Below are positions 4,380 to 52,027 of a DNA stretch of 64,000 nt, one piece after another; within the stretch, counting starts at the first letter, position 1; each line of letters opens with the position of its first letter. The stretch is from Nanobdellota archaeon (lineage in GTDB: Archaea > Nanobdellota > Nanobdellia > Pacearchaeales > GW2011-AR1). Made by a program: the position numbers and the translations under genes. The stretch is taken from assembly GCA_038045445.1 (NCBI GenBank), contig JBBSYC010000001.1, positions 35,140 to 99,139 on the forward strand. The letters are read 5' to 3'. Under the pieces are notes generated by a model that was not told the DNA's origin, ran no database searches, and worked only from the letters and a program-made list of their open reading frames with translations.

Positions 4380-5072
4380 ATGGCAGATAGAAAAATACCT
4401 ATTCATATTGGAATTATTCCAGATGGCAATCGTAGATGGGCTGTTTCTAAGGGTCTTGATAATCTTAAAGGGTATTCTAAAGTAGATTATAACCATTTGG
4501 AAAGTTTACTATTGGAAGCTAAAAAGTTAGGAGTTAAGTATGTTAGTTTATGGTTTTTTTCAACTGAAAATTGGAAAAGACCTAAAATAGAAGTTGATTT
4601 TCTTTTTAATCATTTTTTGAAAAATACTGATAAATTGTTGGAAGGGTGTTTGAAAAATAAAGTTAAAGTAAGGCATTTAGGCAGGAAAGATAGGTTGCCC
4701 AAAAAAGTTCTTGATGCTTTGGATAAACTTGAGTCTGAAACTTGCGGTTTTAAGGACTTTACTGTTCTTTTGTGCGTGGATTATGGGGGAAGAGATGAAA
4801 TATTGAGGGCAGTAAATAAAGTTTTAAGTTTAGGAGTCTCAAAGATTGACGAAGATAGTTTGAGGAATCTTTTGGATACGAAAGATATCCCAGACCCTGA
4901 TTTAATAATAAGGACATCTGGTGAAATGAGGCTTAGTGGATTCATGCCCTTTCAATCAGTTTATAGCGAATTTTATTTTCCAAGTATGCATTTTCCAGAT
5001 TTTAAACCTGAAAATTTGAAAGAGGCTGTTGAAGAATACTCTAAGCGTAAAAGAAATATGGGGGGGAATTGA
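4380..5072 (+). CDS. uppS: undecaprenyl/dehydrodolichyl diphosphate synthase (cis-prenyltransferase)
   Basis: IGIIPDGNRRWA signature near N-terminus, typical 230-aa length, ...RTSGE.RLSGF... C-terminal motif. Confidence 0.85.
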   Translation: MADRKIPIHIGIIPDGNRRWAVSKGLDNLKGYSKVDYNHLESLLLEAKKLGVKYVSLWFFSTENWKRPKIEVDFLFNHFLKNTDKLLEGCLKNKVKVRHLGRKDRLPKKVLDALDKLESETCGFKDFTVLLCVDYGGRDEILRAVNKVLSLGVSKIDEDSLRNLLDTKDIPDPDLIIRTSGEMRLSGFMPFQSVYSEFYFPSMHFPDFKPENLKEAVEEYSKRKRNMGGN

Positions 5073-5115
5073 TGTTCCTTAGAATAATTGTATTTTTATA
5101 GTTGGCAGTTTATTT

Positions 5116-5433
5116 TTGATTATGATTTATATTGTTAATTACGCTATTAGATGTGGTGTTTCTAATGGTCTTGGAACTAAGTTCTCCTCATCGTTAGATG
5201 AAGAATTGAGATTTTCCTCTATTTATGATATGCCTGAAGAATTAGTTGGTCATGCGAAAAATGAAATTAGACGCAGTATTTTATTGAGGGGTTATTTGAC
5301 TGATCCAGAGGATTCTTGTGTTACTGCAAGACTTGTTTCATTAAGAAGAGATGATGGGGTTAGAGTTCCATTTGAAGATGGAACAAATGTTAGAGTAAGC
5401 CAGGTAGAACTTTTACTTGCTCTCCTTGATTAA
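5116..5433 (+). CDS. hypothetical protein
   Basis: ORF track only; no recognisable motif. Confidence 0.25.
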   Translation: MIMIYIVNYAIRCGVSNGLGTKFSSSLDEELRFSSIYDMPEELVGHAKNEIRRSILLRGYLTDPEDSCVTARLVSLRRDDGVRVPFEDGTNVRVSQVELLLALLD

Positions 5434-37878: not shown

Positions 37879-37930
37879 TAGACTATTTTAATGACAAACT
37901 TTATAAATAAATTGAGTATTAGGTATTGCT

Positions 37931-40105
37931 ATGAAAAGAGGATTTTTTTTAGTTGTATCTGTTGCTTTTGCTATTTTAGCTCTTTTTGTTTTATATCTTG
38001 ATGTTGCCAGAGATTGCGGTTCTCTTAGGTGTGTTGCGCGTTATGTTTCTACCGGAGAGAGTTTATCAGACTCTCAATTCCCTCCTAAAAAAATTCAGTT
38101 TTTTGACTCCAGTTCAGATTCTAATATTCTTAGTTTTGCTTTGAAGAAGACTATTTCTAAGATTATTTATCCTTTTGTGGAACATGAAGAGGTTTTGCTT
38201 CAGGCAGGTCTTGAGCCACCGGTTATAACTGGAATAGCTCCTCCTTCCTTTTCTAGTTCTTCCGATACAGATGTTTCAGTAATAGGACAGAATTTTGACC
38301 TTGATGCTTTGCTTTTAATCGGAGGAGATGTTATTGAGAGCTCTAGGCTGACTATAACCCCAACAGAAATATTATTTAGTTATATTGCCAATGAACTTCC
38401 TGCAGGAACTCATCAGGTCTCTGTTACAAACCCTTCTTCAGGACTTGTTTCGAATTCCTTTGGATTAACATTGACTACTAGCCCAGTTATAACTTCTCTA
38501 AGTCCACAAACTATAGTAAATAATGATAGTTATATTGTAAATATAAATGGAAACGACTTTAATCCTTTTGCAGTAGTTTTTGAAGGAATTATATTAGATA
38601 GTTCTTCTGGATTGTGGCAATATGTAAGCCCTAATTTGATTAGACTAAATATTCCTTCCGGTTTATCTGCGGGAGATTTTGATATTCAGATATATAATTT
38701 GGATGGTGCTCTGTCTAATATTATGGTTCTTAGGTCCAATTATCCATTTGTTTATTTCTTGAGTTCTTCTCCTTCTCCTGGAGATGTTTTGCCAGGTAGC
38801 TCTTTTGTTTTGGATGTTTCAATAAATAGTGTTGTTTTCACAGAACATGAAGAAGTTGTTTTAAGTTTGCAGACTCCTTTAGGAATTACTTCTAGTTTTG
38901 TTGGTTCAGACAGGTGTATTCCTAATATTCCTTCTACTGTCGTTCAAGGTATTGCTTATTGTAACCTTGCTGTTAATTTTGATGTTGGTTCTATTCCAAG
39001 TGGAAACTATAATCTCTCTATTAATTCGGTTTCTGCTTTGAATTCCGTGAAGGGTCAGATTAACTTTTCTTTGAATGTTATTCCTTTAGGTCAACCTGAT
39101 GGGGATTTGGATGAAGTCCCAGATTCTATTGATTTGTGTCCTAACACTCCTGCAAATGTAAAGACGACTTACGGAATTAATGTATTCAATGGATGTCCTA
39201 TTCCTAATATTTATCCAATGACTGCTTCGCTCACAACTGACTTCTCAAATGTTCCTAATCTATTTGCTGTCGAGAATTTGAGAATGGGCATTGCTGGAAA
39301 CTCTAGCGTTACTTTTAGGGCTCCCATTAGCATGTTATGGGTGAATACTACTGCAGTTCCTTCTCATCATTTGCCTATAGGTCTTGGAGAATGGGCAATT
39401 AACTTATCAGAGAATTATGTTTTCATTAATTCTACAAAGAGACCTATCTTTAATGTTTCTGCTGAAGTAACTTTCTTTGATACTGGACTTACTAATCCTG
39501 TTTTGTATAGAGATGGAGTTATTTGTGATTCAAGTAAATGTCATATTCTTTCTTTCGATACAATATCTGGAGATGTTGTAGCAAATGTTTCTGGGTTCTC
39601 TAGCTACTCTGTCTCTCAAGGTTCTTGTGGAGACTCTATGTGTTCTATTGCAGAGACTTGCTCTAGCTGTTCTGCTGATTGTGGTTCATGTCTAAATAAC
39701 GGTCCCCCTCCTAGTGGTTCTTCTGGTGGCGGTGGAGGCGGTGGGGGATCTAAGGGTAGTAAGGGTTCTTCTTCGATAGTTTATCGTGCAACTCCTCAGT
39801 GTAGCGATGGAGTGGATAATGATTTAGACTCTTTAGTTGACTATCCTAACGATTTAGGTTGTCTTAATACTAGTGATGATACTGAAGTGGATTCTAGTCC
39901 TCTTGTTGGAGATTCAGAGGGACAAGGAGAATCTTTAGATTCGTCTTCTTCTATAAAAGACAAAGATTATAGTATGGGGGTTGTATTTTGGATAGTCCTT
40001 GTTGTGCTTCTAGGAGGCATAACTCTTGTAATAGTAAGGATATTAAAGTATTCTCGTAATCGCAAAAAGTTTTCAGATCTTGCCGAGATGACTTCTAAAT
40101 CATAA
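37931..40105 (+). CDS. giant surface protein 1 (724 aa)
   Basis: N-terminal TM/signal, IPT/TIG-like domains, the shared cassette, then the C-terminal module described in the summary. Tail KYSRNRKK. Many N-x-S/T sequons. Confidence 0.7.
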   Translation: MKRGFFLVVSVAFAILALFVLYLDVARDCGSLRCVARYVSTGESLSDSQFPPKKIQFFDSSSDSNILSFALKKTISKIIYPFVEHEEVLLQAGLEPPVITGIAPPSFSSSSDTDVSVIGQNFDLDALLLIGGDVIESSRLTITPTEILFSYIANELPAGTHQVSVTNPSSGLVSNSFGLTLTTSPVITSLSPQTIVNNDSYIVNINGNDFNPFAVVFEGIILDSSSGLWQYVSPNLIRLNIPSGLSAGDFDIQIYNLDGALSNIMVLRSNYPFVYFLSSSPSPGDVLPGSSFVLDVSINSVVFTEHEEVVLSLQTPLGITSSFVGSDRCIPNIPSTVVQGIAYCNLAVNFDVGSIPSGNYNLSINSVSALNSVKGQINFSLNVIPLGQPDGDLDEVPDSIDLCPNTPANVKTTYGINVFNGCPIPNIYPMTASLTTDFSNVPNLFAVENLRMGIAGNSSVTFRAPISMLWVNTTAVPSHHLPIGLGEWAINLSENYVFINSTKRPIFNVSAEVTFFDTGLTNPVLYRDGVICDSSKCHILSFDTISGDVVANVSGFSSYSVSQGSCGDSMCSIAETCSSCSADCGSCLNNGPPPSGSSGGGGGGGGSKGSKGSSSIVYRATPQCSDGVDNDLDSLVDYPNDLGCLNTSDDTEVDSSPLVGDSEGQGESLDSSSSIKDKDYSMGVVFWIVLVVLLGGITLVIVRILKYSRNRKKFSDLAEMTSKS
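39121..39681 (+). repeat. copy A of a 561-bp near-identical cassette shared by giant genes 1 and 2
   Basis: Read directly; about 3 mismatches over 561 bp against 46345-46905. Encodes DSIDLCPNTPANV...SADCGSC. Confidence 0.85.
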
Positions 40106-40123
40106 ATCTTTATAAAGTCCTCT

Positions 40124-43100
40124 TTGCATTTTAGGACGATGAAAAGAGGTTTTTCTATTTTTGTTTTATTTGTTTCTCTCATTCTAATTCTTTCATTTTA
40201 TTTTGGAAATTTTTATGATTCTAATGAGACTATTAGCTCTGATTATTCTTGGCCTGCTTCAGTTTATCTGTTTCATGATTTAAATTTATTAAAATCTCCT
40301 AATATGGAGACTTTTTCTGGTTCCTCTTGCACCATTCTAGGTCTTTCTTGGGATAGGCAGAAGGCTAGGGCAGGAGATGATGTTAAATTACTTGTAAATA
40401 GCAAAGGTTGTGATGAGGGAACACATGTTCTTCTAACAATATCTGATTCTGATTTATTATCTGATGACACTCTTTCGTCTTATCGTTTACCTTTAGTTTA
40501 TGATGTTACTTCTGCAATATGGACAGTTCCTTCTTTTCCAGATGCATTTTCTGAATTTATGGAAGGAAAAGACATTGAGTTATATATTTCTGCAACTTTG
40601 GATACAGAGGATGTTTTTTCTACACTTGTTTATTCTCCTTCTAATTCATTAGATGTTAATGACCTTAATTTAGAAGATTATTCAATTCCTCTTCTTATTC
40701 CTCTTCAGGAATCTGATGGTATAGGAGATCCTATAACTGGAGATTTGTTGTCTCCAATTCTTTCTGTATCTGCTTCTGATTTAGAGGAAGACCCTCAAGT
40801 TCAATTGTCTGCAGTTTCTCTTGGGGAAAATCAAGTTTTCATAAAAAATGAAAATGTTTTTGCTGTGACTAATCATTTAGCTAGTGTTCCTATTTCTTTT
40901 CAACCTTGTGAATATTTTGATGGAGATAATAACATAAGGCTTAGAGATACTACGACCAATAATATTCTTACTACTCAAATTCAGTCTACGGGATATCATC
41001 AGAAAGATAGTGCCTCATGCACTAAAGGTTCTGTGATGTTTGCAGTTGCACATGTTAAAGTTAGTCTTGCTCCAGGAGAGGAAAGAATTTATGATATTAT
41101 TGAGTCTACTCAAGCAAACTCTCCGTTTGTTTATGCTCCAGAAGTTGATGATTTTGTTATAAGAGGAGCCATTCGGTCTGTTTCAACAGATATTTATGGA
41201 AGAGATTACGTTGCAGATATACCCTTTGCTGGTTTAGAGTGGGTCGTTAATGGAGATGTTGTTCGTATAGGAAAGTACACAAAAATGCATAGAATTGCGA
41301 ACCCTTCTTCATGCAACACTAATCAGCCTTGTTTGAGCTATTTGTTCTCTGTTGTTACTTATTTGACTTTTGTTAGCAATGAACCCATTGTTAGAACACA
41401 GGTTCTTGTTGTAAATGCGATGAACTTTGATGAACTTCAAACTCCGGACTGCTCTCAAACTCCTTGCGTTTATAGAAGGCTTGATAACAATCAACCTGAA
41501 TGGCAGAATGGAAATTTGAAGTATGGTTCTCTGCGATTTAATATAGATGGTTTTGCTAATCCGTTTTCATTTTATTTTCCAGATATGGATATAAGACAAC
41601 CTACTACAATATCCCAAGTAGATAATACTCATGCTACTGTTTGGACAATGCCTTCTGATGGGCAGTATACTTTAGGATGTATCTTAGGAAATACTGGAGG
41701 TTATTGTCCTCCAGAATTTGATAGAGAGAATAAGAATTATCTTGGAGAGGGTCAGAGTTTGCTTGTGGATGGAATTGTTAAGTTTGGGAGTTATAATACC
41801 CCTACATATACGACGCATAATTATTTTGCAGAGAATAAAATAGGTTCTGGACAATCACTTAAAAGATGGACTAAAGTAGACAGATTATTTGAATCTATGA
41901 TTCCAGATACTTCTAAATTAGGTGATTTGAGTAGATGGATATCTCCTGCAGATGCACAGAGCGAGTATGATTCTATTAGACCTTCTGCTTCAAATCAGAG
42001 GACTCATTTTGGGAATGCTCCTATTTATCAAACTAGGCTTACTGAAGCGAGCGAGAGTTTTCCGAGAGACTTTAGAGTGGATATGTATAGTAACCTTTGG
42101 GTAAAATATTTACTATCTTGTGCGGATAGATGTAATCCCAAATATCTTTATGCTCTTAGTTTTAAAAATAAACAGAGCACAATGTTTGTTGGACATCTTG
42201 TAGGTTATGAGCCTTGGGAACATCCCCTTGCTAACCCTTTAATTGATGATGGTACTGGGGGGATACCATTTAGTAGTTCTGCTGGTGCTGAAAGACTTTG
42301 TTATTCACAAAACCCATTTAGAACGACTTACAGAGATACTCTTGGTTTTTGTAATGTTCAGACTCCAAATGCTCACTTATATGATTATGGTGATTTGGGA
42401 ATTGGAGAGGGAAGAGCCCCCCATCATGAATGGAGTGCTTATGGAAGAACTCATTGGGGAACTAGCGAAGCAGAATATGTTTATGCTTCAGGAGACTTGA
42501 TGTTAAGAGATGTTTTCATGAGCACTGCAAAACTTCATGCTAATGTAATTCATCACTCTCCTGACTTGACTCTTACGAAACCAGCAAGTGGTCCTGCAAG
42601 GGGTATTGGGAGAGTTGCTGTCGGCGTTGAAAAAGCTGCGTTCATGACTAATCCATTGATTCAAAGTTATTATTCAGATTCTCTCAAGAGATGGCTTTCG
42701 AGAATTGATGAGAGATTAAATAAGCAGAATCCTGGAGATAGAGGATATAATCCTGTGACTGGAGATCCTTATGCGGTGGGACATTTGGGAATTGATGCTT
42801 GTAATGATGTCGTTTTCGGAAATGGAGAGCTTTGCGGAGAGCAGGTTTGGATGGAGGCTCTTGCTGCTCAAGGTTTAATGGAGATAAGACAGAATATTCT
42901 TGAAACAGGGACACAATATATTCAACTTATGGATACTATACTCTTTCATTTATCAAGATATCTTTTTGATTTCGGATATAAAGATCCTTCACAAGTCAAA
43001 AATAATTTTGTTATTTCCCATCCTATTACCGGACAGTCAATAACTGTTAATGAGGGTCTTGGATATCTGGCTTATTGGACTGCTCATGGGCCATCTCCAG

Positions 43101-46100
43101 GAGTGTCCGTTGTTACAACATATCCTCGATATAATTATGGCCCTGAAACTACAGACCATTGGCACATACCTAATGCTCTTTGTTTGCTTGCCAAGTTCTA
43201 TTCTCCAGATACTACGCGCCAGAACATAGCATTGAAATCTTTTGAGGCTTCATTTGGGTATAGAGGTTATACTTTGAAAGCTGAAAGCGGATCTCATAGG
43301 CTTAAGGATATTTTGCCTCCATCTCTTTCAGTAATCTCTGCGGACTTTTTATGCTCTTTGACACAGTTAAAAAATATTCCGACACCTAATGTAGTTAATC
43401 CTCCTGCGTGTCCTGACGCTGATGCTGACGGATATTCTACTTGTTTAGGAGATTGCAATGATGCAAATCCAAATATTCATCCTAATGTTCTTGAGAGTAG
43501 TGGTCTTTGCAGTGATTCAGTGGATAATAATTGCAATGGTCTACGAGATTGTGAGGATACGGGATGTTTTCTTTGTGGAGATAATACTGCTTGTTATTCT
43601 TCTCTTTATTGTAACTCTAATTCTATAGCTTATTGTGGAAATCTTGTAGTTAATAATCCAAATGCTGTTGGTCTTCAGGAAACTTGCGATGTCAATCCTG
43701 CTCCGCCTCAACTTATCTCTGTAAGAGGTAGTGGACAGAATTCTCTTGGTGACGGAAGATGTATCCCTCCAGGAACTTTACCTGCGCATGGACAAGCTTG
43801 TACTTATGCAATTGCGGCTACATGCGGAGATAATATGGTAAATCGACAATCAGAAGAATGTGATGGAACAGCTGTTGGGATATGCGGGCCTGCAACGTCA
43901 TGTTCTGCATCTTGTTTATGTAATGGTCCTGTATTGAATAGTATTTCTCCGAATAGTATAACTAACCCTACTCAAAATGTAGTTGTTACTGCTAGCGGAA
44001 GAGGTTTTGTTGCTACTCCCACTGTAAAGATTAATAATATTCCCCAGAGCAGTGTTCCTGTTTCTTTTGTTAATCAAAATTCTATTTCCTTGACTTTTAC
44101 GCCCGATTTTTTACAGATTCTTGGTTCTGGAACTCATCAATTAAGTCTTGTAAATCCAAATACTCAAGAGACAAGGAGTCTTTCTTTGACTACTACTATG
44201 AGCGGAGGATTATGTACTAACGCTTTGATGGTTGGTTCAGGAAAACCTTATGCTAAGCCAAGTGATGCTTTGGCAGTTGCTCAAGATGGAGATACAATAC
44301 TTATATTCCCTGGAACTTATCTTGATTATGCAACAATTACTCAAGATAATTTAATTATTAGAGGAGTAAGAGATGCCTCTGGAAACAGACCTAAAATTAC
44401 ATGGAATGGAAATGTGCCTAATGGAAAGGCTCTTTTTGTTTTAAGATCTCCACACATAGTTATAGATAATTTAGAGATGTATGGCGCCGAATCTTCAAGT
44501 GCTAACGGTGCTGCTTTGCGTGTTGAAAGTCCTGTTACTCAATTAACTGTAAGAAATAGTTATTTCCATGATAGTCAGATGCAAATTCTCCAAGATGAAG
44601 GAAACTTAGCATTTACGGCGCTTTTAGAGTATAATGAGTTCGATCATCAAGGAAGTTGTACTAATAATGATTTGAATCTTTGTTCACATTTGGTTTATAT
44701 TAATGGAGGAGCATCCGTGACTGTTCAGAATAATTATTTCCATCATGCGCGGAGAATGCATCATTTTAAGAGCAGAGCTGCACAAAACTTTGTTTTGTAT
44801 AATAGATTTACAGATGAAGAGACGGGACAATCTAATTACCATATAGACTTTCCACAAGGGGGAGATAATTATGTAATTGGAAACTTATTTCATCAAAACA
44901 TAAACACGAGAAATTCTAATATAATTGTAGTTAATACAGAGATTAATGATCCTTTGAAACCAGCACATACACTTCAGAACTTATATGTTGTCGCAAATAC
45001 TTTTGTAGATGATTTTGCAGGAGTTATGGTTTCTTCAGATTATAATACAAACATACGCACTCTAAATAACTTCGTTATAAGAAATAATATATTTATTACT
45101 TCTGCTTTGCAACAAAATGCTTTTGGAGGAAATCCTACTTTCGATTCAAACCTTTTGAGTACCATTGGTTCATTTACGTGGTTTAGAAATGTTTTAGGTT
45201 ATGATTATTCTCTTACAGGGGGTTTGTTAAACACCGGTTCTCCTTATGGTTCTAGTGTTACTGGTTATTCTTTGACTCCTTCTTATCAATATGTTCATAA
45301 TGCCAAACGTGAGACAAGGTCTGCTTCTGGGGCTCCAGATGTTGGAGCTTATGAGTTTTCAGGGGGAGGAGGAAATACTTGCTTCTCTTCTACTGAATTA
45401 TGCGACGGAATAGATAATAATTGTAATAGTCAGATTGATGAAGGAATAGTATGTACTTCTTGCAGTGGCGGACCTTCTGGACCAAGTATTGTTTCAGTTC
45501 AGCCTTATAACTTTTCTATAGCAAACAATACCTTAGTTGTAGTTACGGGGCAAAACTTTGCAAGTAACTCTGATATAAGAATAAATGGTCTTCCAGTTAG
45601 CACTATTAGAACATCTCTGACAGAATTACGTTGGAATTACATTGCTAATTCTTTGTTGGCTGGATTGAATACTTTAACAGTTTATAATCCTCCTACTGGT
45701 TTATCTTCAGGACCATTTTATCTGAATCTCACTTCTCCTCCTAATGCTCCTTCTAACTTTGTTGCAATTCCTCAGTCTTCTACAGTTATTTTGTTAACAT
45801 GGATAGATAATGCAAACAATGAAGATTATTTTGAAATGGAAAGAAGACCTCTTCCTTCAGGTACTTTTGCTATAATGCCTGGAGCTAGTCGTTTGAATCC
45901 AAATAGCAGAACTTATAACAACACTGGCCTTTCCGTTGGAGCAAGTTATGAATATCATGTTCGTGCAGTTAACTCTGCAGGAACTTCGGCTTGGTCTAAT
46001 TTGGCAAATGCGACAACTGCATCTAATCTTGTCCTTACTTCGTTGAATCCCAACTCAACAGTTAATGGTGCCTCTACAAATGTTCAGATGATAGGGACTG

Positions 46101-47356
46101 GATTCTCGACTATTAATTGTGGTATAGAGATTAACAGAATTCTTGCTAATTCTTCTCTTTATGGAATTAATTGTGTAAGTTCTACCAGAACGGACTTTGT
46201 TGTTCCCCCTGGATTATCTTTAGGGAATTATAGCTTGGTTGAAGTTACCTTGAATAATCTCGGAGGAGTTATTGCACGAAGCAATTCTTTAAACCTTACA
46301 GTAGTTAGTGGAAATGTTCCTGATGGAGATGGAGATGGAGTTCCAGATTCTATTGATTTGTGTCCTAATACTCCTGCAAATGTAAGGACGACTTATGGAA
46401 TTAATGTATTCAATGGATGTCCTATTCCTAATATTTATCCAATGACTGCTTCGCTCACAACTGACTTCTCAAATGTTCCTAATCTATTTGCTGTCGAGAA
46501 TTTGAGAATGGGCATTGCTGGAAACTCTAGCGTTACTTTTAGGGCTCCCATTAGCATGTTATGGGTGAATACTACTGCAGTTCCTTCTCATCATTTGCCT
46601 ATAGGTCTTGGAGAATGGGCAATTAACTTATCAGAGAATTATGTTTTCATTAATTCTACAAAGAGACCTATCTTTAATGTTTCTGCTGAAGTAACTTTCT
46701 TTGATACTGGACTTACTAATCCTGTTTTGTATAGAGATGGAGTTATTTGTGATTCAAGTAAATGTCATATTCTTTCTTTCGATACAATATCTGGAGATGT
46801 TGTAGCAAATGTTTCTGGGTTCTCTAGCTACTCTGTCTCTCAAGGTTCTTGTGGAGACTCTATGTGTTCTATTGCAGAGACTTGCTCTAGCTGTTCTGCT
46901 GATTGCGGCTCTTGTGGAGGAAGTAGTGGGGGTGGTTCTTCTGGAGGAGGTTCCGGTGGAGGTGGAGGAGGCGGAGGTTCTAGTGGTGGAGGTGGAAGAA
47001 CAAGTTCTGGACCAGTTATTAATCGTGTTGTTACTCAATGTAGTGATGGTCTTGACAATGATGGAGATGAATTAATAGATTATCCTAGAGATAGAGGGTG
47101 TTTGAATAACGAAGATGATGTTGAACTTGACTCAAGCAATCTTGTTACCGACTCTGAAGATAAAGAAAGGTTAGGAAATTCCGAAGAGAGTTTGGATAAA
47201 AATATAAGATTGGTGTTTTGGATTGTTCTTGCTACTCTTTTGATTGGAATCTCTATTGTTTTGATATTGATATTAAAATATTCGAGAAATCATAAAAGGA
47301 TTAATGCTCTTGCAAAAATGGTGTCTGCTAATGCTTTTGATTTAAAACATAGTTGA
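40124..47356 (+). CDS. giant surface protein 2 (2410 aa)
   Basis: N-terminal TM/signal. Cys-rich MopE/TSP3-like CxDxDxDG motifs (CPDADADGYSTCLGDCNDANP..., CDGIDNNCNSQIDEG). IPT domains. Right-handed beta-helix repeats (NSYFHDS..., VQNNYFHH...). An FN3-like domain. The shared cassette. Gly linker, QCSDGLDNDGDELIDYPRDRGC, TM, KYSRNHKR. Confidence 0.7.
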   Translation: MHFRTMKRGFSIFVLFVSLILILSFYFGNFYDSNETISSDYSWPASVYLFHDLNLLKSPNMETFSGSSCTILGLSWDRQKARAGDDVKLLVNSKGCDEGTHVLLTISDSDLLSDDTLSSYRLPLVYDVTSAIWTVPSFPDAFSEFMEGKDIELYISATLDTEDVFSTLVYSPSNSLDVNDLNLEDYSIPLLIPLQESDGIGDPITGDLLSPILSVSASDLEEDPQVQLSAVSLGENQVFIKNENVFAVTNHLASVPISFQPCEYFDGDNNIRLRDTTTNNILTTQIQSTGYHQKDSASCTKGSVMFAVAHVKVSLAPGEERIYDIIESTQANSPFVYAPEVDDFVIRGAIRSVSTDIYGRDYVADIPFAGLEWVVNGDVVRIGKYTKMHRIANPSSCNTNQPCLSYLFSVVTYLTFVSNEPIVRTQVLVVNAMNFDELQTPDCSQTPCVYRRLDNNQPEWQNGNLKYGSLRFNIDGFANPFSFYFPDMDIRQPTTISQVDNTHATVWTMPSDGQYTLGCILGNTGGYCPPEFDRENKNYLGEGQSLLVDGIVKFGSYNTPTYTTHNYFAENKIGSGQSLKRWTKVDRLFESMIPDTSKLGDLSRWISPADAQSEYDSIRPSASNQRTHFGNAPIYQTRLTEASESFPRDFRVDMYSNLWVKYLLSCADRCNPKYLYALSFKNKQSTMFVGHLVGYEPWEHPLANPLIDDGTGGIPFSSSAGAERLCYSQNPFRTTYRDTLGFCNVQTPNAHLYDYGDLGIGEGRAPHHEWSAYGRTHWGTSEAEYVYASGDLMLRDVFMSTAKLHANVIHHSPDLTLTKPASGPARGIGRVAVGVEKAAFMTNPLIQSYYSDSLKRWLSRIDERLNKQNPGDRGYNPVTGDPYAVGHLGIDACNDVVFGNGELCGEQVWMEALAAQGLMEIRQNILETGTQYIQLMDTILFHLSRYLFDFGYKDPSQVKNNFVISHPITGQSITVNEGLGYLAYWTAHGPSPGVSVVTTYPRYNYGPETTDHWHIPNALCLLAKFYSPDTTRQNIALKSFEASFGYRGYTLKAESGSHRLKDILPPSLSVISADFLCSLTQLKNIPTPNVVNPPACPDADADGYSTCLGDCNDANPNIHPNVLESSGLCSDSVDNNCNGLRDCEDTGCFLCGDNTACYSSLYCNSNSIAYCGNLVVNNPNAVGLQETCDVNPAPPQLISVRGSGQNSLGDGRCIPPGTLPAHGQACTYAIAATCGDNMVNRQSEECDGTAVGICGPATSCSASCLCNGPVLNSISPNSITNPTQNVVVTASGRGFVATPTVKINNIPQSSVPVSFVNQNSISLTFTPDFLQILGSGTHQLSLVNPNTQETRSLSLTTTMSGGLCTNALMVGSGKPYAKPSDALAVAQDGDTILIFPGTYLDYATITQDNLIIRGVRDASGNRPKITWNGNVPNGKALFVLRSPHIVIDNLEMYGAESSSANGAALRVESPVTQLTVRNSYFHDSQMQILQDEGNLAFTALLEYNEFDHQGSCTNNDLNLCSHLVYINGGASVTVQNNYFHHARRMHHFKSRAAQNFVLYNRFTDEETGQSNYHIDFPQGGDNYVIGNLFHQNINTRNSNIIVVNTEINDPLKPAHTLQNLYVVANTFVDDFAGVMVSSDYNTNIRTLNNFVIRNNIFITSALQQNAFGGNPTFDSNLLSTIGSFTWFRNVLGYDYSLTGGLLNTGSPYGSSVTGYSLTPSYQYVHNAKRETRSASGAPDVGAYEFSGGGGNTCFSSTELCDGIDNNCNSQIDEGIVCTSCSGGPSGPSIVSVQPYNFSIANNTLVVVTGQNFASNSDIRINGLPVSTIRTSLTELRWNYIANSLLAGLNTLTVYNPPTGLSSGPFYLNLTSPPNAPSNFVAIPQSSTVILLTWIDNANNEDYFEMERRPLPSGTFAIMPGASRLNPNSRTYNNTGLSVGASYEYHVRAVNSAGTSAWSNLANATTASNLVLTSLNPNSTVNGASTNVQMIGTGFSTINCGIEINRILANSSLYGINCVSSTRTDFVVPPGLSLGNYSLVEVTLNNLGGVIARSNSLNLTVVSGNVPDGDGDGVPDSIDLCPNTPANVRTTYGINVFNGCPIPNIYPMTASLTTDFSNVPNLFAVENLRMGIAGNSSVTFRAPISMLWVNTTAVPSHHLPIGLGEWAINLSENYVFINSTKRPIFNVSAEVTFFDTGLTNPVLYRDGVICDSSKCHILSFDTISGDVVANVSGFSSYSVSQGSCGDSMCSIAETCSSCSADCGSCGGSSGGGSSGGGSGGGGGGGGSSGGGGRTSSGPVINRVVTQCSDGLDNDGDELIDYPRDRGCLNNEDDVELDSSNLVTDSEDKERLGNSEESLDKNIRLVFWIVLATLLIGISIVLILILKYSRNHKRINALAKMVSANAFDLKHS
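46345..46905 (+). repeat. copy B of the 561-bp cassette (direct repeat, offset 7224 bp)
   Basis: Read directly; see copy A. Confidence 0.85.
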
Positions 47357-47380
47357 GGGATAATTTATATATCTTAAAGC

Positions 47381-50300
47381 TTGTTTTTGTTTATGAGAGT
47401 TAATTATTTTTGGTATTTGTTTTTTGTTTTAATTTTATCAATTATATTAATTACTTATTTTGTTAAGGTTAATAATCTTGAAGGCTCTTTTTCTACTCCT
47501 AGAGACGACGGAATCCTTGGATCTCTTGAAGATTCTGAAGGTCAGCTTTCTCCTCTTGGAGGTGATGAATCCTTTATAATCGAGAATACCTTAGCTCCTG
47601 CAGGTGCTTCTTTAGAGGGGACTAATGCTGTGGGTTTTGATTCTTCTAAAGGAGTTTACTATTTTGAATTTAGGGATTTTAATGATATTCTTTTAGATAG
47701 ATATGAAATAAATATTAGTAACTCCGAAGTTCAAAAAGGGATTTTAAAAATTAGGGAATCTCGAAGAAATTTCTTTCCAGTGGTTGATGGGGGGACTCTT
47801 TATAGGACCCCTTCAGGACAAATACTTCAACCAATTGATCTCGCATTAAAATCCCAGATTAACTCTTTTAATCATCAACAGACTTCTTTAAATAGTGTTC
47901 AATTTCAATATGATGAAACTGTTAGTTCTGAGACCGAAACCGTTTTACTTACAAAGCAGTATACGTTTTCCATTAAAGGGGGAACACTCATTATAGAGGT
48001 TAAACAAATTGATTCTCCTCTTACTCCTACATCGAATTATGCAGGATTTACTTTTGGTCAGGCGAATAATGTTGAGAATCCTCGAAATATATCAATACCT
48101 TATATGGAAATAGCACCCATAACTGTTGTAAATAACAGCTTCTTTTCTTCAACATATATTGATTGGTCTTTAAGCAATTCAAATTATTATCCTCAATTAG
48201 TTTGGTCTAATTCTAATTCTCCTGGAAATTTTAAAAATTCTTACTCTTCAAAATATGTTGCTCGTCAAAGTAATACATACAATAATATTGAAGAAACGGG
48301 ATATGTTTCAGTTAGTAATAATGTTGAGGATCTTATGATGGTTCCTCACAGACAGCCATCCCCTTATCGCAATCAATTGGACTCGAGACCAGTAATTTCT
48401 GTTTGGAATCTTTGGGGAAATTTTCAAACTTCGGAAGGAGTTCTTTCCTATTTTCATGATTCTCTAGGTATTGATAATCTGACTGTGATTTACAATAGAT
48501 GGAGTCAGAATTTCTGTGCTCCTCCCCATGATCTTCCTGCAGCAATGAATCTCGGCGGAAATGAGGCACTACTTAGGTTAGTAAATAAAGCTAAATCTTA
48601 TGGTTATTTATTTGCACTTTATGAAGTTTATTCAGATTTAAATCCTAGTAGTCCATTTTGGGAAAAAAATCAAGATAAAATCTCGCTTAATTCAAGTGGT
48701 GCGAGGCGTTTAGGGTGGTTTGCAGAAAGTTGCCCTTTTCCCCAAAACTATGATCTTTCGAGTGATAAGAGTTTGTTCTTTGCTCAAAATATTTCTCCTC
48801 AAATTAAAGAAACTTTTAATCCTAATGCGGTTTATACAGATGTAATTCCAAAACAATATATGACTAATGGTGGAATAGATTATTCTGCAACTAATTTAAA
48901 TTCTAGTTCTATTGGTGCTACTATGCAAAATGCTATGCATTTGTTTGATTTTCTTCATTCTAATTATAACTCTCCTCTTTTTGGAGAGGGTGGTCAAGTT
49001 CCAATTTCTCCAAGAGTAATGTATGGAGGTTTGGTTGATTCAATTGGAGGTGAAATTGTTGGTAGGGAATTTGCCCCCATATTACCAGATTATGAACTTA
49101 AAATTATAAAACCTTTAATGGCAAATCAGGGAATGGGTATGCCTCAAAGATGGGTTGGAGATGGGACAATACACCATGTCGGAGATTTGGACATAGCTAA
49201 TTTAGATTTGGATAAGTATAATTCAATGGCTATCTCTTATGGTCATACTGGGTATATAGACGAATTGTTGAGTCAAACAAATCCCCTTTATTATCTGTCC
49301 AAATATTATGTAACTGAATATTATTTATTTAGGGAAATTCAAGAGAGATATCTTTCTTCTCCAGTAATATCAGTTTTATATGAAAATTCTTCTGGAAATA
49401 TGATTGATCTTAATGAAGCTTTGCGCCAGAATCTAGATTTTAGTAAGACTAAATTAAGAACTTCTTATTCTAATGGTCTCGTGGTATATGTTAATCACGG
49501 TTCTTCTATTTGGGTAGTTACCCAAAGTGGGAAAACTTATTATCTACCATTAAATGGTTGGTTGGCTATTGCCCCAGATTTTATAGAGTATTCTGCTTTA
49601 GTAGACCAAAATGGTAATCCTTCGATTAGTGGACATAGGGCAGATTATATTTATTCCCCCAATTATCTTTTCGTGAATGGCCGCGGAGTTGAAACCTCGT
49701 TTGGAAATGATTATTTCAATAATCCTATAATTGCAACTAATATTTTAGTAATTAAACCTACTGGTTGGATAGTTCTTGAAACTTTAGACCCTAATATAGG
49801 GGGACAATTTGTTCCTTCGGTTTTTCATTTAGTTCCATCAATAAATAGGATAAATCCAGATAATGTTATTAATAATAAGGATAATTTAATTAGAGTTCAA
49901 GGACTTAATTTTACGTTTACTAATTTTTTAATGCTTAATGATATTCTCTTAGATGATAGCATTTATCAAGTTAATATTGTTAATTCTACAGATATAACTT
50001 TTGTTCTTCCATCTGGATTTTCGACCGGAGATTATAATTTAACTGTTATTCATCCAATTGGTCAAACTGGTAGTCTGACTAGTAATTCCTTAATTTTAAG
50101 GGTTGAATCTCCAAGTGGTACTGGCGGAAGCTCATCCGGTGGTGGTTCTTCCGGTGGTGGAGGCGGAGGAGGCTCTGGAGGTCCTGCAGTCGGAGGAGGT
50201 TTAATAACTCAATGTAACGATGGAGTCGATAACGACGGAGATTTGTTAATAGATTATCCAAATGATTTGGGGTGCAGTAGTTCTAATGACAATAGTGAAA

Positions 50301-50527
50301 TTGATTCTGAATTGATAATAGGATCTACTTCTGGTTCAAATTATACCTCTGGCAACTCAGGGGCTGTCGGAGGAAGGGATTCTGGAGAGAATATGAGCTT
50401 AATCTTTTGGGTTCTTCTTGTATCTCTTTCAATTGCTATAATTATTGTATTTGTTTTAATTATAAGACATTATAGGGCGCGTAAAAGAATAGATTCACTA
50501 ACAAGATTTTCTAATTACTCTAAGTAA
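47381..50527 (+). CDS. giant surface protein 3 (1048 aa)
   Basis: N-terminal TM, large uncharacterised ectodomain, IPT-like domain, the same C-terminal module. Tail RHYRARKR. Confidence 0.65.
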   Translation: MFLFMRVNYFWYLFFVLILSIILITYFVKVNNLEGSFSTPRDDGILGSLEDSEGQLSPLGGDESFIIENTLAPAGASLEGTNAVGFDSSKGVYYFEFRDFNDILLDRYEINISNSEVQKGILKIRESRRNFFPVVDGGTLYRTPSGQILQPIDLALKSQINSFNHQQTSLNSVQFQYDETVSSETETVLLTKQYTFSIKGGTLIIEVKQIDSPLTPTSNYAGFTFGQANNVENPRNISIPYMEIAPITVVNNSFFSSTYIDWSLSNSNYYPQLVWSNSNSPGNFKNSYSSKYVARQSNTYNNIEETGYVSVSNNVEDLMMVPHRQPSPYRNQLDSRPVISVWNLWGNFQTSEGVLSYFHDSLGIDNLTVIYNRWSQNFCAPPHDLPAAMNLGGNEALLRLVNKAKSYGYLFALYEVYSDLNPSSPFWEKNQDKISLNSSGARRLGWFAESCPFPQNYDLSSDKSLFFAQNISPQIKETFNPNAVYTDVIPKQYMTNGGIDYSATNLNSSSIGATMQNAMHLFDFLHSNYNSPLFGEGGQVPISPRVMYGGLVDSIGGEIVGREFAPILPDYELKIIKPLMANQGMGMPQRWVGDGTIHHVGDLDIANLDLDKYNSMAISYGHTGYIDELLSQTNPLYYLSKYYVTEYYLFREIQERYLSSPVISVLYENSSGNMIDLNEALRQNLDFSKTKLRTSYSNGLVVYVNHGSSIWVVTQSGKTYYLPLNGWLAIAPDFIEYSALVDQNGNPSISGHRADYIYSPNYLFVNGRGVETSFGNDYFNNPIIATNILVIKPTGWIVLETLDPNIGGQFVPSVFHLVPSINRINPDNVINNKDNLIRVQGLNFTFTNFLMLNDILLDDSIYQVNIVNSTDITFVLPSGFSTGDYNLTVIHPIGQTGSLTSNSLILRVESPSGTGGSSSGGGSSGGGGGGGSGGPAVGGGLITQCNDGVDNDGDLLIDYPNDLGCSSSNDNSEIDSELIIGSTSGSNYTSGNSGAVGGRDSGENMSLIFWVLLVSLSIAIIIVFVLIIRHYRARKRIDSLTRFSNYSK

Positions 50528-50540
50528 TAATGTAATATAT

Positions 50541-51635
50541 TTATTCTATTTGAAATCTTAATATTGCCCCTGCGCCCTTTGTGATATTGTAGAATTGTTC
50601 GCCTTCTTGCGTTTCATCTGAAATCATTATAACTTCAGAACCCATATCTATTGCCAATCTTTCTAGTTCTGCTACTTGCTTCTTCTCTAATTTTTCAGAT
50701 ATTAACAATTTGTGGACTGCTCCCCTTTCTAAAGCTACTTTTGTTTTTTCAATACCATATGCTGCTTTTTCAGGATATTTTCCCAAGGTCATGAAAAACT
50801 CTTCTATTATCTTTTTTTCCTTTATTATTTCTTGCTCTGCAATATCGCTTTGTGAGGCTTCTACTAAAAGTTTTAGTCCATGTTCATCTACATATCCTAT
50901 GTCTTTAACTGCTATGACTTTCTCTTTTAATTTTGTTACTAATTGACCTTCTTCTAAGAACTCTTCTTTTGTAGGTATTGGTCCACCTACAAGAATTCCT
51001 TTTAATCTAGGTAATTCAAAGAATAATTCTTTCATTGCTTCTGCAGTTCTTCTGAAAAATTCTTTTGCCAAACCTTCTGTTATTCTGTGAAAACGCTGAG
51101 AACTTTGACCTCCTGCCCTCACTTTGCTTGGAACTCCCGAAGTTAAATGTCTTAGAACTTTGATTTGTTTTCCTTCTAATAATCCTAGAGTTGCTTCCTG
51201 TCTATCTATTACTACAAGAGCATACACTTCGTCTGTTTGAAGCATGTCTTTTAATGGTTCCGTTACAAAAACTTGATCGCACCTATACATTCTGACTCTT
51301 AGGGGTTTTGGAGGTTCTATTGCCCATAATTTTATATCAGATACTCCTTCTTTTTCAGATATATTTCCAGCATATAAAGCAAGACCATTTTTTGGAGTTG
51401 CCTTCGTATTCTTTAGCGTTCTGATTATCATATCTATTGCATCGGTAACTGCACTTCTTGTTGCTTTAGATTTAATGTTATCTGCTGTTGAACGCTCTGA
51501 CTCTAATTGTTTTGTTACACTGTGAATATTGAAATCTACTGGAATGAGCACTGTGACTAATTCAGTATGTCTTCCTCTGACACTTTCCAATTCTTCAATT
51601 TGTTCTTCTAGTTGAAGTTTTTGTTTGTCGTTCAT
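50541..51635 (-). CDS. prf1: peptide chain release factor aRF1
   Basis: NIKS motif (TADNIKSK) and GGQ motif (RAGGQSSQRF). Confidence 0.9.
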   Translation of the reverse strand: MNDKQKLQLEEQIEELESVRGRHTELVTVLIPVDFNIHSVTKQLESERSTADNIKSKATRSAVTDAIDMIIRTLKNTKATPKNGLALYAGNISEKEGVSDIKLWAIEPPKPLRVRMYRCDQVFVTEPLKDMLQTDEVYALVVIDRQEATLGLLEGKQIKVLRHLTSGVPSKVRAGGQSSQRFHRITEGLAKEFFRRTAEAMKELFFELPRLKGILVGGPIPTKEEFLEEGQLVTKLKEKVIAVKDIGYVDEHGLKLLVEASQSDIAEQEIIKEKKIIEEFFMTLGKYPEKAAYGIEKTKVALERGAVHKLLISEKLEKKQVAELERLAIDMGSEVIMISDETQEGEQFYNITKGAGAILRFQIE

Positions 51636-52027
51636 GATGGTTTTATTCTCCTATACTTTCCTAGTTCGAGGATAGTTATAGAATTTATTAGATTATCTGG
51701 TTCTATTTCGTCTATAAGGCTTTTTAAGGTATTTGTTATTTGGATTCCAGTAAAAGAGTAAGGAAGCCTTATAATTATTAGACCATAATGGCTACTCTTG
51801 GAGTATCTTAATGGGTTGCCAAAATTCTTATCTTTTGTTATTAGTATAGCTTTTTTATTTTTAGCATATTCTGCAATCTTGCCATCTTCCTCTCCTTGTA
51901 ACTCTGTTAAACTAATATGTTCTACTTCAAAACCTTTGCTTTTTAGCATTTCTACCGAGGATTTAGGAACATTTTCATCTAAAACAAATTTACATTTATT
52001 TTTGTAGTTCTCTAACTTCTTCACCAT
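51632..52027 (-). CDS. DUF5615-family PIN-like putative toxin
   Basis: N-terminal KFVLDENVP...GFEV and KAILITKDKNFG match the DUF5615 pattern. Stop overlaps the aRF1 start (ATGA). Confidence 0.65.
   Translation of the reverse strand: MVKKLENYKNKCKFVLDENVPKSSVEMLKSKGFEVEHISLTELQGEEDGKIAEYAKNKKAILITKDKNFGNPLRYSKSSHYGLIIIRLPYSFTGIQITNTLKSLIDEIEPDNLINSITILELGKYRRIKPS

Follow-up and report, generated by a model that had tools for sequence, protein, structure and literature searches.

Membrane-anchored surface proteins with putative carbohydrate-active heads and a shared C-terminal cassette in a DPANN archaeon

Introduction

DPANN archaea and CPR bacteria, whose metabolism is minimal, probably depend on host cells, and little is known of how they engage the host envelope. 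A 64-kb stretch of archaeal DNA (the window, i.e., the whole stretch analyzed) contains three consecutive genes for large proteins, termed P1, P2, and P3, with a common C-terminal end, which raises the question of whether these proteins constitute a distinct surface system and what they would do at the cell surface. Large anchored proteins of the cell surface already count as a hallmark of DPANN archaea (PMC10266531); P1–P3 look like a variation on a known theme, not a new kind of system. In the reading favored here, to which we assign a probability of roughly 0.6, they are type-I anchored DPANN surface proteins with putative carbohydrate-active heads.

Gene models and surface character

The open reading frames (37931–40105, 40124–47356, and 47381–50527) all lie on the + strand and agree with the NCBI protein records MEK6915009.1–011.1 of a "Nanoarchaeota archaeon" MAG, confirming three consecutive same-strand genes. 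The source MAG is from groundwater and, as judged from aRF1, FtsZ, and the source names, Nanoarchaeota/Pacearchaeota-like. The genes and the elements preceding them are as follows.

37900..37907, + strand: TATA-like box TTTATAAA of gene 1, 31 nt before the ATG
37931..40105, + strand: gene 1 (P1, 724 aa), MEK6915009.1
40109..40116, + strand: TATA-like box of gene 2, 30 nt before ATG 40139
40139..47356, + strand: gene 2 (P2, 2405 aa from ATG 40139; ORF opening at TTG 40124), MEK6915010.1, NCBI name "MopE-related protein"
47364..47371, + strand: TATA-like box of gene 3, 29 nt before ATG 47393
47393..50527, + strand: gene 3 (P3, 1044 aa from ATG 47393; ORF opening at TTG 47381), MEK6915011.1, hypothetical protein

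The octamer TTTATAAA occurs at only ~16 distinct sites in the 64 kb, yet it lies 29–31 nt ahead of each of the three ATGs. Genes 2 and 3 probably start at ATG 40139 and ATG 47393, respectively, both with a TATA box in front; of the sizes first given (724, 2410, and 1048 aa), that of P1 holds, and the other two become 2405 and 1044 aa. A conserved three-gene unit was rejected because a P2 homologue (P0065) occurs on its own among other neighbors, the homologues of P3 have different surroundings, and each gene has its own TATA box; the same observations leave a three-gene "system" unsupported.

Exactly two hydrophobic segments are present in each protein, one N-terminal and one C-terminal, the latter being the TM helices at residues 684–702 (P1), 2366–2384 (P2), and 1010–1028 (P3). 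All three proteins are Ser/Asn-rich, with 10–16 N-X-S/T sequons per protein. Hydropathy and sequon counts are thus in agreement with the proposed N-terminal hydrophobic helix and Ser/Asn-rich ectodomain, and the two-helix layout, together with the Pfam domains described below, supports membrane-anchored multidomain surface proteins. The N-terminal helices are without an AxA site, and the MKRGF motif could be a class III signal.

The C-terminal anchor cassette

The last ~135 aa are common to P1, P2, and P3 (BLASTP E 2e-28 and 7e-30), confirming a module shared by all three proteins. It was delimited in each by BLASTP, alignment, hydropathy, and NCBIfam.

39698..40102, + strand: P1 cassette, with the VVFW-TM helix
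46916..47353, + strand: P2 cassette
50114..50524, + strand: P3 cassette

In order, the cassette consists of a Gly/Ser linker, one copy of an acidic two-Cys repeat (consensus QCSDGxDNDxDxxIDYPxDxGC), an acidic spacer, the motif (I/V)R(V/L)VFW with the TM helix, and a basic tail. The full cassette is found in 10 proteins, including P1–P3, from at least five DPANN MAGs or metagenomes; the seven further proteins, from MAGs of Woesearchaeota, Pacearchaeota, and Nanoarchaeota, bear out the expected conservation outside this genome. It was seen only in DPANN archaea, on P2-like, P3-like, and FN3-only ectodomains, and its spacing is constant across the 10 proteins, with 39–50 aa from the repeat to the TM helix and a tail of 13–32 aa (~20–25 aa in P1–P3) that retains a pattern of a basic cluster and a conserved Leu. 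A search of the PDB gave no relative of the cassette.

By sequence, the repeat unit is clearly homologous to the acidic double-disulfide repeat NF033662 (acid_disulf_rpt), of which it is one unit; MopE and thrombospondin type 3 Ca-binding repeats are the other close comparisons. A repeat profile search retrieved 34 repeat proteins (E down to 5e-24), and at least 438 tblastn-confirmed stretches of this type were found among GTDB species genomes, in DPANN, CPR, Myxococcota, Actinomycetota, and other groups. Elsewhere the repeat usually forms tandem arrays of up to 14 copies, whereas in the window and the DPANN relatives a single copy stands at a fixed distance from the C-terminal TM helix. NF033662 requires a score of at least 41 bits over the whole protein, normally reached with several tandem repeats; because the cassette holds only one, P1, P2, and P3 score below this cut-off (20.7, 22.5, and 16.8 bits, respectively). 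The conserved Cys and Asp residues of the shared end are thus one copy of a catalogued and very widespread repeat. The predicted repeat would be stabilized by a disulfide and probably by Ca2+.

The architecture of the cassette invites the suggestion of a true sorting signal, an idea raised in the original prediction; an archaeosortase- or rhomboid-type enzyme would then cleave at or near RxVFW, with the protein being re-attached to lipid or the S-layer. Indeed, as in the PGF-, PEF-, and PEP-CTERM signals, a C-terminal motif at the outer TM edge, a helix, and a basic cluster are combined in one lineage-restricted module on many unrelated secreted proteins, and in bacteria the same repeat often stands ahead of short TM-plus-Arg-rich C-termini. 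Unlike those signals, however, the cassette has no signature tripeptide, PGF, PEF, and VPXXXP-type motifs being absent, and no NCBIfam CTERM model was matched when five C-termini were scanned at E values up to 10. Furthermore, the length and conserved pattern of the cytoplasmic tail suggest that it is retained, and, in contrast to archaeosortase/exosortase systems, the 64-kb window yielded neither a sortase gene nor any polytopic membrane protein (five or more TM segments). Cleavage and sorting are on this evidence quite improbable, and retention by the cassette itself is the reading followed below.

P1 as a partial duplicate of P2

P1 begins with a signal/anchor helix and continues with two TIG domains, an Ig-like region, the 200-aa domain that it has in common with P2, and a Cys motif, before ending in the anchor cassette.

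38219..38458, + strand: P1 IPT/TIG domain, aa 97–176, with a second copy following (Pfam PF01833, E 1.8e-11, two stretches)
39092..39691, + strand: P1 aa 388–587, opening with a TSP3-like DxDxD stretch, after which comes a domain of unknown fold; DNA 97.5% identical to P2 46316–46915
46316..46915, + strand: P2 aa 2065–2264, the 200-aa domain common to P1 (sequence alignment with P1)

The similarity between P1 and P2 extends beyond the last 110 aa, with 54% identity between P1 93–722 and P2 1783–2401, and by these alignments the last third of P2 has its paralogue in P1. Residues 388–587 of P1 correspond to 2065–2264 of P2, with a DNA core of ~480 nt at 100% identity; the domain also occurs in the homologue P0065, and permissive Pfam and NCBIfam scans detected only its TSP3-like start. 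An assembly artifact is an unlikely cause of the identical stretch because the sequences recur on several contigs (exact P1 on three and P2 on two), and the 90% clusters of P1 and P2 each include further members from other contigs. The description of the paralogues as highly divergent outside the C-terminal end consequently applies only to P3, which shares just the TIG domain and the anchor with P1 and P2. Selection on this end as a unit, as had been proposed, gives way to a different explanation: the cassette is mobile, and P1 duplicates part of P2.

Domains of P2 and its PL26-like core

The largest domains of P2 and P3 (P2 228–1095 and P3 59–830) were missing from the original domain list. 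P2 comprises the following regions in addition to those given above.

40805..43408, + strand: P2 core, aa 228–1095, a rare family with an N-terminal beta-sandwich and an alpha/alpha toroid; closest solved structure PL26 exo-rhamnogalacturonan lyase
43406..43993, + strand: aa 1095–1290, Cys-rich MopE-type repeats (PF11617, 41.1 bits; 13 of 22 family members; homologue alignments run through)
43991..44248, + strand: aa 1290–1375, TIG-like (sequence reading and homologue alignments)
44249..45403, + strand: aa 1376–1760, putative right-handed parallel beta-helix, inserted in P2 alone among the family members
45482..46309, + strand: stalk with TIG 1787–1857, FN3 1875–1960, and TIG-like 1966–2062 (Pfam; BLAST to the P3 TIG)

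The predicted IPT/TIG, FN3, and Cys-rich MopE domains of gene 2 were all recovered by Pfam: PF01833 (IPT/TIG) exceeds its gathering cut-off of 20.9 bits in both P1 (44.3 bits, two copies) and P2 (32.3 bits), PF00041 (fn3) scores 33 bits at P2 1875–1960 (cut-off 25; PDB FN3 match 1x4z, E 1.4e-4), and PF11617 (Cu-binding_MopE) scores 41.1 bits at P2 1110–1139 (cut-off 27; two stretches). The NCBIfam model CoaZ_rpt_PGGG matched two stretches in P2, the one listed being 1787–1865. The beta-helix, on the other hand, was not recovered by HMM, with no match to Beta_helix, PbH1, NosD, or Pectate_lyase (Pfam E up to 5, NCBIfam E up to 10); the predicted model of 1376–1760 is pectin-lyase-like, with a pLDDT of only 47.8. 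The region thus differs from the beta-helices of GH28, PL1/6/9, tailspike depolymerases, and PfbA in having no superfamily HMM match.

The core, the N-terminal domain of P2 (31–230), and the beta-helix gave no match in Pfam or NCBIfam at permissive E values, and a word-indexed homologue search returned one fragment for the core. An exhaustive HMMER search with the N-terminal part of P2 defined a family of 29 representatives among 1.84 billion sequences, found only in DPANN and CPR and thereby crossing the divide between archaea and bacteria. Its members contain 24 invariant columns, including charged and aromatic toroid residues, at 23–29% pairwise identity between P2 and most homologues (49% for one), a pattern that resembles that of an active site.

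The core yielded a confident predicted model with the fold and domain arrangement of PL26, and its structural neighbors are all enzymes. The match to PL26 (10–11% identity, TM 0.46) is at the level of the fold only; CAZy families are defined by sequence, and by sequence the core falls outside PL26. A profile built from 22 members of the P2 family likewise retrieved no PL26 chain from the PDB (E up to 10), giving only MopE and teneurin Cys-rich matches. The solved PL26 enzyme, Penicillium chrysogenum PcRGLX (5xq3/5xqj; EC 4.2.2.24), is a secreted fungal protein; the P2 core, in contrast, forms part of an anchored archaeal protein of 2405 aa, for which pectin is an unlikely substrate in groundwater symbioses.

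P3 and its similarity to GH129

47555..49870, + strand: P3 large domain, aa 59–830, very small family (phmmer 5opq/8rzg, E 1.4e-6; family alignment)
49832..50095, + strand: P3 TIG-like domain, aa 818–905 (CoaZ_rpt_PGGG E 0.004, sub-threshold; BLAST to the P1/P2 TIG)

Residues 348–430 of P3 resemble the TIM barrel of the GH129-like DagB (5opq) and of the GH129 member NagBb (5wzn). A profile of the P3 subgroup matched the same barrel region in both (DagB E 5.6e-7, NagBb E 0.006), with only ~80 aa aligned, and the match weakened when more divergent homologues were added (E 0.0026 and 0.02). No Pfam GH129 match was found for the domain, nor any other in Pfam or NCBIfam at permissive E values. One homologue (L082) matched DUF5696, for which nothing was found in the literature, with E 5.6e-5 and 22.3 bits, below the 25.6-bit threshold; the aligned 81-aa DagB fragment gave no match to Pfam DUF5696.

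The catalytic pair is D435/E478 in NagBb and D486/E531 in DagB (PMC5698469). In P3, D487 (YTDV), conserved in all five homologues covering the position, and E536 (GEGG), conserved in six of six, are co-linear with these pairs and would be equivalent to them, as judged from spacing rather than alignment. DagB contains an N-terminal domain of ~300 aa followed by the barrel, an order with which that of P3 is compatible. Compared with NagBb (alpha-N-acetylgalactosaminidase) and DagB (3,6-anhydro-D-galactosidase), however, P3 has an anchor and a TIG stalk in addition, and the similarity is only local. About five further relatives (the L003 homologue and L082–L085) were obtained in two non-exhaustive scans, and a word-indexed search matched the domain only to itself. 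UGA recoding as an explanation for the in-frame TGA in L003 was rejected because the stop codon of that gene is itself TGA and, in a sister assembly, the position codes for Gly.

Proposed function and alternatives

In the proposed mechanism, each gene would be transcribed from its own TATA box, as the upstream sequences suggest, and the proteins would be exported via the N-terminal signal-like helix and retained in the membrane by the C-terminal cassette, the layout of which is seen in all three and the topology of which is predicted from the positive-inside rule. The TIG and FN3 domains would form a stalk displaying the putative heads, namely the PL26-like toroid and pectin-lyase-like beta-helix of P2 and the GH129-type TIM-barrel-like domain of P3; P1, short and paralogous to the P2 stalk, has no recognizable head. 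Since the heads resemble enzymes that cut sugar polymers, P1–P3 would be surface-mounted tools for degrading or binding glycans, which may bind and probably cleave extracellular or host-envelope polysaccharides for attachment or sugar scavenging. Recombination would shuffle the cassette and the heads among DPANN surface-protein genes. Polysaccharide binding or cleavage, already suggested in the original prediction, appears to be the best-supported function, in view of the PL26-like fold, the weak beta-helix model, and the GH129-type similarity. In relatives, the partner domains (PG_binding_1, Laminin_G_3, and Ig_Rha78A_N) are of the kind usually seen in extracellular proteins that act on glycans.

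None of the three putative heads scores above a curated family threshold, which is also consistent with non-catalytic adhesins, in which the toroid, beta-helix, and TIM-like domain would only bind, serving host or partner attachment as in methanogen adhesin-like proteins and pneumococcal PfbA. Stalks of Ig-like domains and repeats that bind Ca are common features of adhesins, and DPANN archaea depend on cell contact (PMC10266531). The 24 columns kept invariant in the P2 core family at such low identity, the exclusively enzymatic neighbors of its fold, and the co-linear Asp and Glu of P3 nevertheless argue against this, and a purely adhesive role is considered possible but rather doubtful.

Structural components of the envelope (S-layer or sheath), which would build the wall rather than act on foreign glycans, are a further alternative. 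Archaeal S-layer proteins are typically C-terminally TM-anchored, glycosylated, and Ser/Thr/Asn-rich, with Ig-like domains, and P1–P3 resemble them in anchor, composition, and Ig-like domains and have 10–16 sequons each. A core wall protein, however, is expected to be conserved across a lineage, whereas the P2 and P3 families are very rare (29 representatives and, in the non-exhaustive scans, about five further relatives, respectively), are mosaic between closely related strains, and have enzyme-like folds, making a wall-building role highly improbable.

Beyond the reading as anchored surface proteins with putative carbohydrate-active heads, a bolder proposal is that the ~800-aa P2 core, found only in giant DPANN/CPR surface proteins, founds a new lyase/hydrolase family and the P3 core a new GH129-type branch, with which episymbionts would open or harvest host envelope glycans; the cassette would then be a DPANN-specific anchoring or sorting device, exchanged by recombination and the archaeal counterpart of the PG-binding anchors on CPR homologues. 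This proposal is speculative and unlikely in its entirety. The locus nonetheless provides testable candidates in the form of two unannotated enzyme-like heads, one of which is common to both ultra-small radiations. If active, the heads would represent CAZy families not yet described and indicate which glycans the symbionts target. In addition, the cassette could make it possible to catalogue, by sequence alone, the surface proteome of MAGs of Woesearchaeota, Pacearchaeota, and related Nanoarchaeota.

Comparison with known systems

The closest comparison is with the SPEARE-type proteins of Nanohaloarchaeota (PMC10266531), which are likewise very large proteins of ultra-small symbionts, with arrays of Ig/FN3-like domains and membrane anchoring, and which, like P1–P3, take up a considerable part of a reduced genome and differ from strain to strain. 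P1–P3 differ in being much shorter and in having no VirB4/TraG-like ATPase or protease domain by Pfam; the ATPase domain stands at the cytoplasmic end of SPEARE proteins, where P1–P3 have tails of only ~20–25 aa. In place of these, P1–P3 carry CAZyme-like heads and a different, DPANN-specific C-terminal cassette.

Gene Organization and Probable Promoters

The proposed cluster indeed comprises three consecutive same-strand genes, whose products are referred to as P1, P2, and P3 and numbered from their ATG starts. The open reading frames (ORFs) and the promoter-like boxes preceding them are as follows.

37900-37907, + strand: TTTATAWA box, 31 nt upstream of ATG 37931 (gene 1)
37931-40105, + strand: gene 1 ORF (P1; MEK6915009.1, 'IPT/TIG domain-containing protein')
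40109-40116, + strand: TTTATAWA box, 30 nt upstream of ATG 40139 (gene 2)
40124-47356, + strand: gene 2 ORF (P2; MEK6915010.1, 'MopE-related protein', 2405 aa)
47364-47371, + strand: TTTATAWA box, 29 nt upstream of ATG 47393 (gene 3)
47381-50527, + strand: gene 3 ORF (P3; MEK6915011.1, 'hypothetical protein', 1044 aa)

By exact look-up, MEK6915009.1-011.1 belong to the record of a 'Nanoarchaeota archaeon' MAG, where they sit on a contig of 145.8 kb, and the source of ENA copies of the locus proteins is Hainich groundwater wells. The neighboring genes mark the source as an archaeon; they encode an aRF1/Pelota-type release factor, FtsZ (whose 90% cluster includes a Candidatus Pacearchaeota sequence), MnmA, and valyl-tRNA ligase. 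GC content is ~33% in the window, and 35-40% across the cluster (window 38001-48000) versus 29-33% in the flanks, a difference that could reflect Gly/Ser/Cys-rich amino-acid composition or foreign origin. Just past the flanking release-factor gene lies a toxin-antitoxin-like pair, namely a DUF5615/PIN_10-type gene and an adjoining DUF433 gene (window 51632-52027 and downstream; 4782-5364 in the scanned locus L002).

The TTTATAWA octamer occurs at only ~16 distinct sites in the whole 64 kb, and its placement before all three ATGs suggests that each gene is most likely served by an archaeal TATA box of its own and yields an mRNA that is leaderless or almost so. The same placement favors ATGs 40139 and 47393 over upstream TTGs as the starts of genes 2 and 3, where the NCBI annotation likewise begins. 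The trio is thus a cluster, but not demonstrably a single transcription unit.

Each protein is Ser/Asn/Gly-rich, carries 10-16 N-glycosylation sequons, and contains exactly two strongly hydrophobic 19-residue windows—that is, the predicted N-terminal one and another located 20-30 residues from the C-terminus. Archaeal class III (prepilin-peptidase) signal peptides are marked by (K/R)G ahead of a hydrophobic stretch; the MKRGF N-termini of P1 (37931-37945) and P2 (40139-40153) resemble this pattern, which is lacking in that of P3 (MRVNYF).

The C-terminal Cassette

All three proteins end, as originally predicted, in the same module, here termed the cassette. The ~135 aa in common comprise, in order, a Gly/Ser-rich linker, one copy of an acidic Cys repeat (QCSDGxDNDxDxxIDYPxDxGC..D..E), an acidic spacer of 35-50 aa, a transmembrane (TM) helix opening with (I/V)R(V/L)VFW, and a tail in which a basic cluster is accompanied by a conserved Leu. 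The Cys/Asp unit corresponds to the 'acidic double-disulfide repeat' NF033662 (NCBIfam), scoring below the cut-off because only a single copy is present. Ahead of the linker, a Cys motif (CGDxxCNxxETCxxCxxDCGxC) was observed in P1 (39650-39695), P2 (46870-46915), and most cassette-bearing homologues (loci L003, L004, L012, and L019), but not in P3, so the cassette may extend beyond the 110 aa initially assigned to it.

The repeat by itself is very widespread, the complete cassette far more restricted. A profile search for the repeat returned 34 proteins, nearly all built of tandem repeats, and among GTDB species, each represented by a single genome, at least 438 stretches were confirmed, spread over DPANN, CPR, Myxococcota, Actinomycetota, and other groups. 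Of 87 repeat-bearing ORFs drawn from 79 loci, 7 have the full layout (single repeat, 39-50-aa gap, TM helix, and 13-32-aa tail). These 7 come from MAGs of Woesearchaeota, Pacearchaeota, or Nanoarchaeota, and conservation of the module beyond this genome was thereby borne out. The cassette is joined to a P2-family ectodomain (P0070/L012), to P3-family ectodomains (L003/P0095, L082, L084, and P0092), and to FN3-rich or otherwise unrelated ectodomains (P0096 and P0102). In some bacterial proteins, too, a TM helix comes after the repeats, with a tail that is much shorter. In several bacteria (proteins P0010, P0020, and P0030; loci L032, L048, L063, and L074), acidic-Cys-repeat arrays lead straight into CG..-TM-RRRR or into a TM helix and 6-20-aa tail, and look like the repeat placed beside bacterial C-terminal sorting signals.

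The simplest reading of the sequence is that the cassette would serve a type-I membrane protein as its stalk and anchor. A processed sorting signal is a minor alternative, against which stand the lack of any match between the cassette TM helix plus tail and curated C-terminal sorting-signal models (E up to 10), of a PGF- or PEF-type motif in the cassette, and of any polytopic membrane protein encoded in the window that could serve as an archaeosortase. No relative of the cassette was found in the PDB.

Ectodomains of P1 and P2

Several of the anticipated domains were recovered by Pfam: TIG domains in P1 and P2, and, above threshold, an FN3 domain (P2 1875-1960) and the Cys-rich Asp-repeat modules, which are MopE repeats (P2 from 1110). 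The predicted β-helix (P2 1376-1760) fared less clearly, with no HMM match for such a fold and no counterpart among the related proteins compared. This region nevertheless contains 8 hxxNxF-type motifs spaced 23-38 residues (versus 2.4 ± 1.5 in shuffles), and a single-sequence AF2 model consists entirely of short β-strands at low confidence (pLDDT 47.8, pTM 0.54), so that a right-handed β-helix is likely, though not proven.

The largest element of the locus, P2 228-1095 (the core), had been overlooked. It has no sequence match in Pfam, NCBIfam, or PDB, and an exhaustive HMMER search with P2 31-1095, which includes the core, yielded only 29 proteins in 1.84 billion representatives. Family members measure 1000-2900 aa in nearly all cases and have MopE, TIG, FN3, PG_binding_1, or Laminin_G_3 as partner domains; the named ones belong to a Nanoarchaeota archaeon and to a CPR bacterium, Candidatus Harrisonbacteria. 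An alignment of 17 sequences has 24 invariant columns, including D738, W770, H777, D791, R826, and R830 (numbered as in P2), and the AF2 model built from it (pLDDT 77.4, pTM 0.87) comprises an N-terminal β-sandwich followed by an α/α toroid. PL26 entries ranked first in Foldseek (E 1.4e-9, TM 0.46 over the full length); the modeled core thus resembles a carbohydrate-active enzyme at the fold level, as distinct from belonging to the family.

The CPR homologues of the core end in a peptidoglycan-binding domain in place of a TM anchor. CPR-type bacterial members of the P2-core and P3-core families, ending in PG_binding_1, are P0079/P0122 (Candidatus Harrisonbacteria), P0078, and L085. The heads are therefore common to both ultra-small radiations, with anchors fitting each envelope.

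The P3 Domain

The family of P3 59-830 (the P3 domain) is even smaller than that of the P2 core: a word-indexed search matched only the domain itself, and locus scans added five relatives, namely a Woesearchaeota homologue with 35% identity across 818 aa and four from metagenomes. P3 348-427 matches the TIM barrel of DagB (5opq/8rzg; E 1.4e-6), a GH129-like 3,6-anhydro-D-galactosidase with a ~300-aa β-sandwich, a barrel at 300-620, and an Ig-like domain (PMC5698469). With a profile of the closest subgroup, the E-value improves to 5.6e-7 and NagBb (5wzn) is also found at the same barrel position (E 0.006); in one homologue, the DagB-aligned region has a Pfam DUF5696 match just under threshold. 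The signal is real but local, since the GH129 link loses strength with wider profiles (E 0.0026 and 0.02).

Catalytic candidates in DagB are D486, E517, and E531, and the catalytic residues of NagBb, the founding GH129 enzyme, are D435 and E478 (PMC5698469). In P3, D487 (YTDV) is kept in all five homologues covering that site and E536 (GEGG) is invariant (6/6 homologues), both at distances from the aligned block co-linear with the DagB/NagBb catalytic residues; from this spacing only, D487 and E536 may be equivalent to the GH129 catalytic residues. In the Woesearchaeota homologue (L003), an in-frame TGA at nt 2400 falls within the conserved GEGG motif, and the sister assembly (P0095) has Gly (GGA) at this position. 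The TGA is a sequencing error or strain-specific pseudogene; UGA recoding was ruled out, the gene's own stop also being TGA.

Mosaic Architecture

The expectation that the proteins diverge strongly outside the last 110 aa holds for P3, whose similarity to P1 and P2 is confined to a TIG domain and the final ~135 aa (E 2e-28 and 7e-30), but not for P1 and P2. P1 93-722 and P2 1783-2401 are 54% identical and include a nearly identical stretch (P1 388-587 and P2 2065-2264; DNA 97.5% identical over 600 nt), so that P1 is paralogous, in part, to the last third of P2. Within the stretch, ~480 nt (39212-39690 in gene 1, 46436-46914 in gene 2) are 100% identical amid diverged surroundings, most likely through recent gene conversion; the formal alternative is a repeat collapsed in assembly.

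Two lake-metagenome P3 homologues, L082 (2302-5607) and L084 (150-3482), are 100% identical in their first ~135 and last ~340 residues, with only 20-40% identity in the central ~600-aa core, a pattern that indicates exchange of the putative catalytic domain as a cassette. P0065, a P2 homologue, has the domain shared by P1 and P2, lacks the β-helix and the acidic repeat, and stands alone in an unrelated neighborhood. From the conversion tract, the core swap, and the make-up of P0065, frequent reshuffling of head, stalk, and anchor modules is evident; the tandem arrangement of the window genes is not conserved. Near P0065 lies an opposite-strand giant gene (L086 24389-28787; ~3020 aa, no Pfam match), on a contig also encoding CDC48 with an intein.

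Proposed Function and Comparison with Known Systems

In the best-supported model, P1, P2, and P3 would be Sec-exported, C-terminally anchored surface proteins whose TIG and FN3 stalks would keep carbohydrate-active heads clear of the membrane. The heads of P2 would be the PL26-like toroid and the β-helix, and that of P3 a GH129-type barrel, with P1 having no recognizable head. Gene structure, the hydrophobic ends of the proteins, the cassette and where it occurs, domain matches, and the P2-core fold are direct results; we infer export, topology, catalysis, substrates, and any host-contact role. As the main rival reading, the proteins would be adhesins with heads that bind only, and an S-layer role is a minor alternative.

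Surface-anchored multidomain CAZymes are familiar in bacteria. Giant anchored surface proteins, for their part, are already deemed a DPANN hallmark (PMC10266531). What is new here is the rare and so far unannotated P2-core family, whose PL26-like predicted fold occurs in both DPANN and CPR, together with the small GH129-related family of the P3 domain and a definable DPANN anchor cassette.
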